Shown in pieces: positions 10,163 to 47,202 of a stretch of DNA of 64,000 nt. Below the pieces are notes generated by a model. That model saw only the letters and a program-made list of their open reading frames with translations. It did not search any database and was not told the origin of the DNA. The DNA comes from Eledone cirrhosa. Taxonomy: Eukaryota. How positions within the stretch are numbered: position 1 is the stretch's first letter; each line of letters opens with the position of its first letter. The translations under genes and the position numbers were made by a program. The stretch spans positions 318,742,001-318,806,000 of the forward strand of contig OZ024741.1 in assembly GCA_964016885.1 (NCBI GenBank), given 5' to 3'.

Positions 10163-10342
10163 TAGGAAAATGTATGACCCCGACGGCAGAGCTCAAGCCG
10201 TTTCGACAGCTATATAGCCGTCGAAACGGCTTGAGCTCTGCCATCGGGGTCATACATTTTCCTATTACCCACTCTACTACCCTAAGTATTGAGTACTCTG
10301 GTGCGTTATGGTCCATCTGGTTCTTACCACAACTTCTTCGTT
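10163..10342 (+). mobile_element. HHR family B fold-back element in (TA)n
   Basis: ~100-bp palindrome containing GAAA-CGGC-ttgagctct-GCC(a)-TC (HHR stem III), then tail cctattacccactctactaccctaagtattgagtact.tggtgcgttatggtcca..tggttc.ttaccac. Confidence 0.85.
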
Positions 10343-10364
10343 ATATATATGTGTGTGTGTGTGT

Positions 10365-10552
10365 TTAACCCAGGTTCAATCGGGGTTAACCACAGTAAGT
10401 AAGGTACTCAATACATAGCAGAGTATACATTTTTAATATAGAAATGGCTTCTACAGGACTAGAATTGTTTTATTTGTGAGAAATCATCAGGAAGCCCTGA
10501 TGATTTCTCCCGAATGAAACAGTTCTAGTCCTGTAGAAGCCATTTCTATATT
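10365..10552 (-). mobile_element. HHR family A fold-back element with two back-to-back HHR cores
   Basis: ...aaatcatcaggaagccctgatgattt...; minus copy has a mutated GAAA, plus copy lacks a pairing stem I. Confidence 0.85.
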
Positions 10553-10578
10553 TTATATATATATATATATATATATAT

Positions 10579-10777
10579 AACGAAGGAAGTGTGGTAAGGA
10601 ACCAAGTGGACCATAACGCACCCGAGTACTCAATACTTAGGGTAGTAGAGTGGGTAATAGGAAAATGTTCAAGACCCTGACGGCAGAGCTCAAGTCGTTT
10701 CGACGGCTATTTCTAGTCCAGAAAAAGCCGTCGAAACGGCTCGAGCTCTGCCGTCGGGGGTCTTGAACATTTGCCTA
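10579..10777 (-). mobile_element. HHR family B fold-back element
   Basis: Same tail, reverse-complemented, plus a ~120-bp palindrome centred on loop TAGTCCAG. Confidence 0.85.
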
Positions 10778-12299
10778 TATATATATGTGTGTATTTATTT
10801 AATCAATTTAAACGTCCGTACCGATAGTAAGTTATGGCAGACAAGAACAGGTATCTAAGAGGAAGAAAGAAAAAAGAAAGACACGGAAAAGGGAAACAAG
10901 AGAAGCAAAAAGAAGAAAAAATGTGAAAAAATAGGATAACTATAAAGTACGTGTGCGTGTAAGGAAAAATCATGGGGGCTAACTCAATACAATGATGATA
11001 TACTAGTTTAACACTTGATATTGAGGAAAAAGAATCTTAACGTTTCGTACGTCAATCATTCATCGAAAGATAGAATGGGAGAGAGAGAGAGGGGGGAGAG
11101 AGAGAGGGAGAGAGAGAGAGAGAGAGAGAGAGAGAGAGAGAGAGAGAGAGAGAGAGAGAGAGAGAGAGAGGGCAGATGTTTGGAAGAGAGAAGAAATATG
11201 GAGATAGACGAGTAAGAAAGAAAACAGGAACAGGTTAGACAGAACATAAAGTACGTGTTATAGTTAGTCAGCCATCTTAAATACAAAGATACAATCATCG
11301 TATCATATTACACAGTGAAACAAATATAGCTATTCAAATTACAGAGGTAAGGATTACAGAAGTATCAATTTTTCATCGCTATTAGGAAACATTCGAAGAC
11401 AGAGTAAAAAGAAAGAAGTAGAGAGAGAGAGAGAGAGAGAGAGAGAGAGAGAGAGAGAGAGAGAGAGAGAGAGAGAGAGAGAGAGAGAGAGAGAGAGGTA
11501 ACTATAAAATATGTGATTGCCTCTAAAGCCTTATATTGGACACGGCGTTGCGTTGAGTGAAATTGATTGAACAACACAACACAGTCACGTGTACCCTTAC
11601 GGGAGAGTCAGCGTGACCCCTGTGAGACATGGCTAGTTCTTTGAGCTACAAGTGCAGTCCATTCGACAAGCTTCCAAACGGTTTCTGTCACTCTCAAATT
11701 ATTGGTTGATTCGAGACTATGGTAAAAAAACACTTGCCCAAGATCCAACGCAGTGCAATCGAATCCGATACCTAATCGTTGCATGAATCCATAGTGTGCT
11801 CAGTCACTTGCACATTAATTTCACGAGCAGACTGTTCCGTTGATCGAATAGATGAAACATTCGTCGTTGGAACCGACGGAAGTCCAACACACACCCACGA
11901 TTAATTCTAGAGATGGATGCCTATTTGCAGTTCCTGTACACTTCATATGTTTAAATATAAGGTTATCGTTTTACGTCCGTTACTTTATATTTTGCATGGG
12001 TTCTACGAATGCCGGGACTTATTCCAGATTCATGGGTATTCAGTAACTATGAGTAATTAGAGATGCACCTCCATCGCCAGACTAACCCCCAGCTGCCGCC
12101 AATAGTATTCGTAAATTTCAGCTCAGTGAACTGAAATTATGAAAATGAAATGCTTGGCTCAAAGAAACTACGCGCCAACCAGTCCGTGAATCGAACCCAT
12201 GACCTTACGATAGTGTGCCCAACGCTCTAACCACTAGGTCACATGCCTTCCTTCATATATTTTATGATTGCACATATTTTTTTCTTTTGTTTCTTCCAG

Positions 12300-42815: not shown

Positions 42816-44189
42816 CTTGTGTATAATAGTATGATATAATAAAAGACGAGAGAAGAGAAGAGGAGAAGAAGACAGAGAAGAGAAGAAGAAGAAAAAAAAA
42901 GAAAAAAGGCAAGAGGGCTGAGGAATGGTGCTCTCACTTGGTAAGAGAGACGGAGTGTGGTGATGGAAAGACAGCGAGATTTGGGGAGAAATCAGGAGAG
43001 TTTGGGAAAAAGGTGAAAGGTGAACGAAAGCAATGAATGAGAACATACTCAGACGTACAACATGTAAACACGACTCTCTCCAAGAATTTATTCACGCACG
43101 GGAATAAGCAAATAGTCATTGATGAATAGCGATGTCTGTCTTGTTGAATATCCCCGAGAACTACGTAAAGAAAGGATACACGTGTCAGGTCTGTGGAATG
43201 CTCAGTCACCTGCAAGTTAATGTCACGAGCAGGCTGTTGTTGGAATCAACTGAAACAGTCGTCGGAAACGACGGCAGTCCAATACATACATACATACATA
43301 CATACATACATACATACATACATACATACATACATACATACATATATACATACACATATATATATATATATATATATATATATATATATATATATATATA
43401 TATATATATATATATATATATATACATGTCTGTGAACGACAAGGAATAGAAAAATATTTTTGAATTGAATTTTCATATATGAAGCCTATATAAAGCAGAA
43501 TCGATGTAAATAACCAGTGGAAAATAGACAATGTTTGTTGAAAATATAACGAAATATCTGCATTAAATTGCAGGAATTTTACTTCTGACTCAATCAACGT
43601 TCTTTTTCATCAAGCGACTCTCTCTCTCTCTCTCTCTCTCTCTCTCTCTCTCTCTCTCTCTCTCTCTCTCTCTCTCTCTCTCTCTCTCTCTCTCTCTCTC
43701 TCATAAGTTCAGACAAGTTTACTTTACAATAAGGAAATATTGCTTTTATTGATGTTGGGGGCTTTACATTAAATTACAATGTTCACAAACCCAAGTATAA
43801 ACACAGCATGTATACGATACACAAACACACACAGTGAACAAATATAAGATGTACGTACATATTTATAACATTATTTGTGTGTGTGTGTGTGCGTGTGAGC
43901 GCGAGAGAGAGAAAGAGACTATACTACATATGTTGTACGTACGTGTGTAACTATACTACATATGCGGTGCTTGTATATGTGTGTGTAGCTACACTATATA
44001 TGCAGTGAGTGTGTGTGACTATACGATATATATATATATATAGTATGTATGTGTAACTATACTACATATTTAATGGGTATGTGTCTATACTATGCATGTA
44101 GTGTGTATGTGTGTGTATGTGGGGGGGTGTACTTTAGTATATATTGTGCTCGTGTTTAATTGAAAATTTCATAGAAAAACCGATAGATA

Positions 44190-46330
44190 GATACATACAG
44201 ACAGACAGATAGACACACACACATACATACATACACACACATACACTCACATACATAGATACATGCAGACATACATGCATACATACATACATACATATAT
44301 ACATATATAGACACACAGAGACAGACAGACACACGTGCATACATACATACATCCAAACATACATACATACATACATACATCCAAACATACATACATACAA
44401 ACATACATACACATACATACATACATACATACATACATACACACATACATACATACATACATACATACATACATATATACATACATACATACATACATAC
44501 ACACACACATACATACATACATACATACATACACACACATACATACATACATACACACATATATACACATACATACATACATACATACACACACATACAT
44601 ACATACATACACACATATATACACATACATACATACATACATACACACACATACATACCTACAAACATACATACATACATACATACATACATACACACAC
44701 ATACATACCTACAAACATACATACATACATACATACATACATACATACACACACATACATACCTACAAACATACAAACATACATACATACATACATACAC
44801 ACACATACATACCTACAAACATACATACCTACAAACAAACATACATACATACATACATACATACACACACATACATACCTACAAACATACATACCTACAA
44901 ACAAACATACATACATACATACATACATACATACACACACATACATACCTACAAACATACATACCTACAAACAAACATACATACATACATACATACACAC
45001 ACATACATACCTACAAACATACATACCTACAAACAAACATACATACATACATACATACATACATACACACACATACATACCTACAAACAAACATACATAC
45101 ATACATACATACATACACACACATACATACCTACAAACATACACACATACATAGGTAGATAGAAAGAATGTAGATAGACAGACTGACAAATTCACACAGC
45201 GAGAGGACGATGTAACGTCAGAATTAGATAGACAGATAGATACAGATATTTTTACTTTTACTTTCCTTTTCTCTCCTCTCTCTCTATCTATCTATCTATC
45301 TCTTTCTCTCTATATTTCTCTCTTTTCTCTCTCTCGCTCTCTTTCTCTCTCTCTCTTTCTCCCTCTCTCTCTCTCTCTCTCTCTCTATATATATATATAT
45401 ATATATATATATATATATATATATATACATATATATACTATATATATATATATATATACTATATATATATATATATATATATATATATATATATATATAT
45501 ATATTGTATATTTATATATATATATATATATATATATATATATATATATATATATATATATATATATATATATATATATATTTATATATATATATATATA
45601 TATATATATATATATATATATATATATATATATATATATATATATATATATATATATATATATATATATATTGTATATTTATATATATACACAGTATATA
45701 TATATATATATATACAGTATATATATATATATATATATATATATTATATATATATATATATATAGAGTATATATATATATATATATATACAGTATATATA
45801 TATATATATATATATATATATATTATATATATATATATATATATATAGATACTGTTGAACTTATATATATATATATATATATATATATATATATATATAT
45901 ATATATATATATATATATATATATATATATATATATATATATATATATAAATATACAATATATATATATATATATATATATATATATATATATATATATA
46001 TATACAATATATATATATATATATATATATATATATATATATATATATATATATATATATATATATATATATATATATATATATATAAATATACAATATA
46101 TATATATATATATATATAGTGAAAACTTGTACGGGAACAAAAACAGAGAGGCAAACAAATAAAGGTTTATTAGGTTCACGCTCTTGATATATCTATATAT
46201 GTATATGTATATATATATGTATATATATATATGTATATGTATATGATATACGTGTATATGATATATATGTATATATATATATATATATATATATATATAT
46301 ATATATATATATATATACATATACATATAC
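44190..46330. repeat. (TACA)n minisatellite-like array with CCTACAAA higher-order units, then (CT)n and (TA)n
   Basis: Direct reading. Confidence 0.95.
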
Positions 46331-46339
46331 ACATACATA

Positions 46340-46438
46340 CAGGGTGTCCCAATAAATGTATACACACTTTGAATACCTGTATAGTCAATATTTATTAGAA
46401 TGCTGTTGAGGTGTGTATACATTTTGGGGGGACACCCT
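46340..46438. mobile_element. Tc1/mariner-like MITE
   Basis: TA-CAGGGTGTCCC..aaatgtatacacac ... gtgtgtatacatttt..GGGACACCCT-ATA. Confidence 0.75.
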
Positions 46439-47064
46439 ATATATATATATATATATATATATATATACATGTGTGTGTGTGTGTGTGTGTGTGTGTGTGT
46501 GTGTGTGTGTGTGTGTGTGTGTGTGTGTGTGTGTGTGTGTGTGCGCGTGTGCGTGTGTGTGTAAATACTACTACTAAATTCATCCGCTTTTATGTGTTGA
46601 CATGATAAAATCTTTCCATCTGACACGATCAAGCATAAGCTACCACAGTTCTTCACCGGAAAGTTCTGTATATTCCTCAATCGCACTCTTTAATGTATAT
46701 GTGTGGCTGTCTGTGTGTGTGTATGTATATATACATGTGTATATATATATATATATATATATATATATATATATATATACATATATATATATATATATAT
46801 ATGTGTGTGTGTGTGTATATATATATATATATGTGTGTTTGTGTGTATAGATATATGTATATAAATATGTATATGCATATATATATGTGTGCGTATATAT
46901 ATATATATATATGTGTGTGTGTGTGTGTGCGTGTGTGTGTATATGTGTGTGTGTATACATATAGATACATGCACACATACATACATATATATATATATAC
47001 ATATATATATATACATATATATATATATATATATATATATATATATATATATATATATATATAT

Positions 47065-47202
47065 AACAAAGGAAATGTGGTAAGGAACCAGGTGGACCAT
47101 AACGCACCAGAGTATTCAATACTTAGGGTAGTAGAGTGGGAAATAGGAAAAAGTATTACCCCGACGGCAGTGCTCAAGCCGTCGGGATCATACTTTTTCC
47201 TA
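47065..47202 (-). mobile_element. HHR family B fold-back element (fold on stem III)
   Basis: Family tail plus taggaaaaagtattaccccgacggc-agtgctcaa-gccgtcgggatcatactttttccta. Confidence 0.85.

Follow-up and report, generated by a model that had tools for sequence, protein, structure and literature searches.

How the inverted and tandem ends of Penelope-like elements (PLEs) form, and what part their hammerhead ribozymes play, is stated as open in passages of PMC8557442. Related systems offer points of comparison: a Poseidon protein extends both target strands in vitro, with two start sites flanking the tail (PMC11167929); the Penelope start site lies in the pseudo-long terminal repeat (pLTR), with a TATA-less promoter (PMC2377424); L1 and SVA copies show an untemplated G where the RNA end was capped (PMC4859970); and hammerheads with a U3-A8 core are a known variant in Schistosoma PLEs (PMC4209133). 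Here, we analyze a 64,000-nucleotide stretch of the genome of Eledone cirrhosa (GCA_964016885.1, contig OZ024741.1, positions 318,742,001 to 318,806,000; hereafter the window), which contains five palindromic copies, each a 5′-truncated stub of a Penelope-like retrotransposon that is very abundant and carries Hydra-clade motifs. It is likely, with a probability of about 0.7, that each stub consists of two complementary DNAs (cDNAs), likely of one RNA, that ran off a capped start predicted inside stem II of the element's hammerhead and were joined head to head.

Five palindromic copies in (TA)n

The five copies, three of them on the minus strand, share one layout: (TA)n, inverted arm, forward arm, a 79-nt tail and (TA)n again. 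Their tails are 90–97.5% identical to the young parent, and the two arms of a copy match each other at 49/51, 51/58, 50/54, 31/35 and 23/25 positions in copies 1 to 5, respectively. Positions in the element are counted from +1, the A of TTT/AGTCC on the 3′ side of stem II; the ribozyme is predicted to cut after +41, the tail-less outer end is +60, and the tail occupies +61 to +139.

10163–10343, plus strand: copy 1; inverted arm 10163–10213, tail arm 10214–10264, tail 10265–10343; both arms end at +10, blunt join
10579–10777, minus strand: copy 2; tail 10579–10657, tail arm 10658–10714 (end +6), inverted arm 10714–10777 (end −1, the longer arm); overlap of 1 nt
25491–25680, minus strand: copy 3; tail 25491–25567, tail arm 25568–25629 (end −2), inverted arm 25627–25680 (end +7); overlap of 3 nt
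27126–27263, plus strand: copy 4, centred on stem III; tail arm 27146–27184 (from +22), tail 27185–27263; arms overlap by at least 5 nt, possibly by up to 14 nt, the loop being nearly palindromic
47065–47202, minus strand: copy 5, centred on stem III; tail 47065–47143, tail arm 47144–47182 (from +22), inverted arm 47178–47202; overlap of 5 nt
26162–26181, plus strand: 20-nt tail-end fragment (E 0.003), missed in the count of an earlier note

That earlier note, made from the letters of the window, had reported five tail-sharing palindromes in (TA)n without the CTGANGA half of the ribozyme, and both observations hold: the copies lie at the positions above, and the 5′ half of the core is absent from all five. 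The stem III centring of copies 4 and 5 is likewise as it had described. The claim that the other three are folded exactly on the stem II hairpin is not confirmed, since their arms end at +10/+10, +6/−1 and −2/+7 and the parental loop and 5′ strand occur in none of them. The GACGGCT that it had paired with AGCCGTC as a natural stem II belongs to the inverted arm, with AGCCGTC opposite it in the forward arm; the parental 5′ strand reads G(A/T)TCGGCT.

A 26-nt pattern from the tail end has 21,662 exact matches in the 3.0-Gb genome (reversed control, 0), which chance cannot explain, and young-subfamily tails have 5,047. Sampling regardless of the element, in 100 evenly spaced 10-kb stretches of contigs C1–C4 and 214 kb around the window, recovered 43 tails in 1,214,000 bases, which extrapolates to ~100,000 element copies. 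By exact patterns, 12,912 palindromes are centred in the stem II region, 4,311 have both arms reaching +1, and 243 are centred on stem III. DNA searches with tail variants returned no match, probably since very common words get skipped, and whole-window repeat finding and the Rfam scan were dominated by microsatellites. One copy sits in (GATA)n, not (TA)n (L021).

Arm ends define an edge at +1

Arm ends were mapped on a real parent unit in the first 92 consecutive copies, on C1, of the 5,047 young tails (41 of the 92 with upstream sequence of just 468–850 nt). BLAST assigned to the long class four tail arms stopping at a subfamily indel, one truncated by the edge of its locus, and five long inverted partners. 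The 92 insertions have 162 arms, of which 123 reach +8: 96 end between +1 and +8 (26 at +1, the mode, and 17 at +2), 11 between −1 and −5, and 16 further upstream. Between −6 and −130, where the loop and 5′ strand of stem II lie, none of the 123 young arms ends, and none of the 92 tail arms. Among 92 older copies, for which mapping is noisier, ends fall at −5 to +8 in 40/92 tail arms and 42/64 inverted arms. Fold centres are non-random, as the earlier note had held, clustering at one edge inside stem II.

This edge behaves like an RNA 5′ end, not like a hairpin. The free base beside an arm that ends at +1 is a G in 11 of 16 cases, where the parent has T; beside ends elsewhere it is a G in 12 of 41 (p = 0.008, one-sided). 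The count in older copies (5/5 G) is excluded from support because three of these may be letters derived from an arm. A TATA-like box begins between −26 and −34 in 115 of the 118 long-copy matches, which include 38 distinct sequences, and +1 lies within TYAGT in all 118, a motif that the search pattern demanded. Judged by the TATA and initiator consensus sequences, TYAGT is initiator-like, and it is kept in subfamilies that have lost inner-helix pairing (L087, L164). A transcription start at +1, which like hammerhead cleavage is inferred from DNA only, would account for the short copies without a 5′ core, as that half would not be in the RNA. In the genome-wide list of palindromes with both arms at +1, many arms extend to −3 to −5, which suggests that transcription may also start near −4. 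The edge is not a splice acceptor, because the AG is retained in the arms (26 end at +1 and 7 at +3). One 200-nt RNA contig covers 134 nt elsewhere in the unit, away from the start, and is uninformative on expression or start site.

The same data bear on two other origins of the edge. In a longer RNA, it could mark a place where reverse transcriptase (RT) is strongly arrested or a nuclease cuts, such as a stem II bound by protein; the edge does lie in a predicted helix, the start at +1 is deduced from DNA, and the sample behind the cap test is small. However, the edge is ~16 nt inside the helix and not at its entry, TYAGT persists despite lost pairing, a TATA-like box stands ~30 nt upstream, and G predominates among the bases added at +1, A/T among those added at the uncapped +42 end, which together make a stop or cut quite improbable. 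Alternatively, the insertions began as long palindromes, and deletions at their centres shortened them afterwards. Palindrome centres are unstable, and a few copies carry microhomology deletions (L008, L016), but deletion would neither stop at one base nor add a G, the youngest, near-identical copies have the sharpest edge, and 6-kb palindromes survive intact (L097, L099). We find this scarcely credible.

Junctions and arm lengths

Of 63 short inverted young copies, 25 have a longer inverted arm, 23 a longer tail arm and 15 arms of equal length; the corresponding figures for older copies are 27, 25 and 12 (n = 64). Junctions are mostly blunt (20) or overlap by 1 nt (15), and 54 of the 63 are distinct. 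Spacing between the arms is at most 2 nt in 25/63, an overlap of at least 2 bp together with a loop occurs in 3/63, and 11 of the 12 junction insertions of at least 5 nt hold a piece of the element's first 140 nt.

The earlier note had explained the palindromes by a tail-primed cDNA that snaps back on the stem II or stem III hairpin and self-primes its second strand. Centres do cluster in the ribozyme, copies 4 and 5 and the 243 genomic copies are in stem III register, and one copy is centred on a 6-bp hairpin across GAAA (L302). As a general route, though, this model is refuted, and we give it very little credence. Snap-back on stem II needs the loop and 5′ strand on the tail arm, where no tail arm ends; it needs an inverted arm no longer than the tail arm, which is exceeded in 25/63 copies and by 16 kb in one array; and it needs room for a loop, which the 25 copies with at most 2 nt between arms do not offer. 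The note's further claim that each fold arose independently is right, though not on the ground it gave. Separate origin is shown by the varied junctions; the arm differences between copies, offered as proof, recur across many copies as subfamily variants and prove nothing of the kind by themselves. The feature that the note picked out is real and informative, but its cause was misassigned.

A second form of self-priming would begin after run-off at +1: one cDNA, tail-primed or tail-less, folds back via short or untemplated pairing and copies itself, so that the second arm is DNA-templated. It agrees with the alleles shared between arms (see below) and with the element pieces in junction insertions, and its two modes together could yield symmetric arm lengths. 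Self-priming has also been proposed for PLEs, on an antisense template, in passages of PMC3846280, of which this would be the sense-template version. It remains unlikely, as loop room and overlap with a loop are as scarce as the counts above show, in some copies each of the two arms carries the extra base (L315, L323), an exact halt at +60 would be required of every inverted arm, and both arms exceed one unit in one insertion (C19).

Inverted arms and TA flanks are also what a miniature inverted-repeat transposable element (MITE) moved by a DNA transposase would show. That reading is refuted and its probability is negligible: the tail is one-sided, 54 of the 63 junctions are distinct, the copies are continuous with an RT-encoding parent, and neither fixed terminal inverted repeats nor a unit amplified by a transposase was found. 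The earlier note was right to prefer a retroelement.

In three copies, short tail arms are joined to internal element sequence in the same orientation (L195, L327, L328); two of these (L195, L327), among the young copies that lack an adjacent inverted arm, leave the element start somewhere between +1 and +4 and continue in internal sequence. These joins resemble misdirected template jumps or serial insertions.

Long insertions and arrays

The two-arm architecture extends to long insertions, of which 20 were examined, 16 of them picked for intact open reading frames (ORFs). All 13 with both ends in view consist of one tail-bearing and one tail-less arm of unrelated lengths (e.g., 287 nt and 16 kb), and short palindromes, in a sample partly selected by tail, have one tail in 58/59 and two in none. 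The two outer ends are fixed, 79 nt apart, and each stops on a TAT that matches the target. In 13 of 16 long insertions, opposite arms show no difference at shared polymorphic sites (e.g., 0 in 3,002 nt), and they share private alleles; median divergence between insertions is 0.92%. Arm classes also co-occur (both long 5, both short 63, mixed 2; p = 2e-6, complex and unpaired copies left out), and together with the shared alleles this fits a pair of cDNAs copied from a single RNA.

Units within one array are 99.7–100% identical and share alleles, and both arms can exceed one unit. Arms that pass +1 need another template, a requirement that fits the circular RNA put forward in passages of PMC4209133, read-through multimers, or jumps through the +1 to +41 repeat. 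Two arrays of other kinds were seen: at least 15 head-to-tail repeats of a 55–58 nt ORF piece at the inner end of an arm (L094, 9170–9998), and a ~593-nt tandem repeat with >99% identity between units (L064, reverse strand, 1451–4936).

A second edge at the predicted cut site and the stem III class

In 2 of the 92 young copies both arms end at +42, the first base after the predicted cut. Genome-wide, 245 palindromes fit the cut-site pattern; among the first 50, counted by hand, 37 have +42 as the end of both arms, 2 have a single arm at +41, 6 extend to +39 and 5 beyond that. The 37 comprise 17 without a spacer, 11 with a single untemplated A/T and 9 with other untemplated letters. With a wider pattern that admits shorter arms (50 copies, hand count), the longer arm ends at +41/+42 in 33 and both arms are shorter in 6. 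These ends are indirect evidence that the ribozyme may cut in vivo after +41 and that its product is then copied.

The stem III-centred palindromes amount to about 2% of those centred in the stem II region (243 vs 12,912, exact patterns), so the two in the window belong to a rare class. Snap-back is possible for this class, which two-cDNA annealing or deletion between 5-nt direct repeats would also explain.

A Penelope-like parent with Hydra-clade motifs

The parent was found by tracing long copies upstream to an RT ORF. Its unit is 3,531 nt, with an ORF at +232 to +2385 (716–717 residues), intact ORFs and tandem arrays. A protein search of the genome gave 114 scored places, including many open frames of 784 codons, several in arrays. 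The single ORF carries YRDD, and its predicted structure (predicted local distance difference test score 92) best matches telomerase RT (TERT; E 1e-8), as expected of the telomerase-related RT of a PLE; a Pfam scan and a PDB sequence search with the protein returned no match. A GIY-YIG endonuclease motif (VIY..YIG) lies C-terminally at residues 590–608. Atlas neighbours of the protein carry GIY-YIG and RVT_1, and Pfam GIY-YIG matched weakly in only 1 of 15 homologues, so that support for the endonuclease is at motif level. Tandem and partial-tandem copies, an inverted 5′-truncated copy and an optional tail, all typical of PLEs, are present.

The clade placement follows motifs as described in passages of PMC8557442, which point to Hydra. 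RWR (RWK-like) at residue 37 and DKT, in place of DKG, at residue 117 are conserved in 114 and 118 of 120 homologues, and GxKF/Y is absent. The CxCX5C linker (residues 572–580), CxxC (670–673) and CxH (698–700) are kept in 113, 115 and 114 of the 120; CxxC and CxH flank a conserved E and N. There is no CCHH motif, a single Cys lies inside the GIY-YIG core, and insertion is into (TA)n, as in the Hydra clade. The Neptune clade was dropped, the protein having neither a CX2-5CxxC linker nor CCHH. Two other Penelope-like ORFs occur in one locus (L065, 1–2004 and 3974–5365), one diverged and Hydra-like, the other with weak RVT_1 and GIY-YIG matches.

The parental hammerhead

The 3′ half retained in the stubs belongs to a type I hammerhead, as the earlier note had recognized: minimum-energy folds of 3/3 long copies give a complete three-way junction (z-scores −3.36, −1.64 and −0.35). 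The features of the type are present, namely core positions 3–9, GAAA, NUH and a paired 3-8 position. The parent that the note had called for was found as to its fold but not as to its CTGANGA core, which occurs in 0 of 98 core matches; 91 of the 98 read TTGA-N-AA (U3-A8), position 7 taking all four bases, in a search whose pattern fixed part of the core and which counted overlapping loci repeatedly. Stem III is a stable helix of 5–6 bp and stem II is long.

Four long copies have a C3-A8 mismatch core, CTGAGAA (L128, L148, L152, L209), and are possibly a subfamily with a weakened ribozyme. Diverged subfamilies differ in the stem II 3′ strand (L113, L115, L236, L267, L015); in one, the inverted arm likewise ends at AGT (L267).

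A proposed two-cDNA model

We propose the following sequence of events. The endonuclease would cut both (TA)n strands, and each 3′ end would prime RT at one of the two TAT sites. Transcription would start at +1, directed by the TATA-like box at about −30 and the initiator-like TYAGT. The first hammerhead of such an RNA, devoid of its 5′ half, would be unable to self-cleave, and the next one in a tandem array, being whole, would cut after +41. On capped RNA, both cDNAs would reach the end of the template, after 60 and 139 nt, in many cases with the cap copied as one more base; their ends would then be trimmed and end-joined with 0–3 nt of microhomology or templated insertions, a joining pathway that, unlike the anatomy of the copies, is inferred. 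On hammerhead-cut linear RNA, they would stop at +42; on circular or multimeric RNA, they would pass +1 and give long and tandem arms.

Several observations weigh against this model. No adjacent inverted arm was found in 18 of the 92 young copies, and five arms in older subfamilies end at −20 to −6. The cap test is small, 5 of its 16 free bases are not G, and several of the G's possibly derive from templated insertions, the arm or a microsatellite target. The genome-wide list of palindromes with both arms at +1 is mixed, with many arms extending to −3 to −5 and the G templated in one subfamily. Shared alleles could also reflect gene conversion, and 3 of the 16 long insertions differ at 1–2 polymorphic sites. 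As to the ribozyme, the young parent folds no better than shuffled sequences (the z of −0.35), Rfam gave no hammerhead match in the parent, the 17 cut-site copies without a spacer can also be read as CG microhomology, and passages of PMC11167929 report no RNA ends at the hammerhead cut site of the element studied there.

A broader reading, held tentatively and with slightly less than even confidence, is that the genome records the whole Penelope cycle: the promoter would lie in the hammerhead, every insertion would be two head-to-head cDNAs, and +1 to +41 would act as a retrovirus-like terminal repeat. The first ribozyme of the messenger RNA would be disarmed and the next armed, and capped, ribozyme-cut and circular RNAs would yield three product classes, with ends at +1, ends at +42 and multi-unit arms.

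The value of the system lies in thousands of near-identical young insertions of a PLE family with ends that can be mapped at single-base resolution. These insertions suggest a single rule across all sizes, a start inside the ribozyme and ribozyme-cut RNA as a template, in a retroelement able to fill a genome with MITE-like palindromes.

A second family in the window

A second family has the same palindrome-plus-tail build and a canonical CTGATGA hammerhead, with members in the window at 10378–10556, 7191–7344, 25835–25884, 53170–53295 and 61580–61750. Many of its arms end 0–10 nt upstream of the core (26 tail matches in the random sample), which suggests an RNA start in stem I. Further CTGATGA..GAAA motifs with stem-like flanks occur at 5975, 47309, 53432, 55834 and 3246. 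Those at 53432 (minus) and 55834 (plus) are near-identical, on opposite strands and 2.4 kb apart, and are perhaps another PLE with inverted ends.

Comparison with known systems

In the literature searched, no comparable junction map was found; most subscription papers and supplements lay outside it, and the supplements of PMC8557442 and PMC11167929 may bear on the matter. The passages of PMC8557442 give neither a start site, a cap mark nor a junction map; those of PMC13282606 (repeat annotation) and PMC12602865 (Neptune) hold nothing on such junctions; and, in the parts consulted, PMC7229834 and 10.64898/2026.07.22.740005 treat retrozymes, not PLE junctions of this kind.

As portrayed in the same passages of PMC8557442, the Hydra clade of PLEs with a C-terminal endonuclease has elements generally <3 kb, a canonical hammerhead and, as PLEs do, a tail of 30–40 nt; the element described here has the type I fold but a U3-A8 core, a unit of 3.53 kb and a 79-nt tail. 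The Poseidon element PAc (PMC11167929, excerpts) resembles it in that both target strands are cut and extended, two internal RT starts flank the tail, targets are AT-rich, and a hammerhead lies just upstream. PAc belongs to a different clade, however, and its tail is inside the ORF, not upstream of the first ATG of the ORF (+232) as in the present element; the excerpts offer no explanation of an inverted arm. Schistosoma Cercyon PLEs, in passages of PMC4209133, show the same U3-A8 covariation and opposite-strand hammerhead pairs, and circular templates are proposed for their tandem arrays; unlike Cercyon, the present element has a stable stem III, a long stem II and stubs ending at the predicted cut site.

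One-sided tails on head-to-head inverted repeats are also known from the inverted pLTRs of Adineta vaga Penelope, which are explained by antisense-template self-priming in passages of PMC3846280. The data presented here favour two cDNAs of sense RNA. The inverted part of an L1 insertion is upstream RNA and is not duplicated; here, in contrast, both cDNAs copy one same stretch, and the product is therefore palindromic. The likeness to L1 twin priming, in the relevant passages of PMC4859970, is that two primers on one RNA give an inversion and that an untemplated G stands at the capped end. Precedents exist for this class of element, its inverted ends, its tail and its U3-A8 core. What appears to be new, within the literature searched, is a map at base level that shows a sharp edge inside a ribozyme, marked by a cap-like base, another edge at the cut site of that ribozyme, and a single two-cDNA architecture for insertions of 100 bp to 16 kb.

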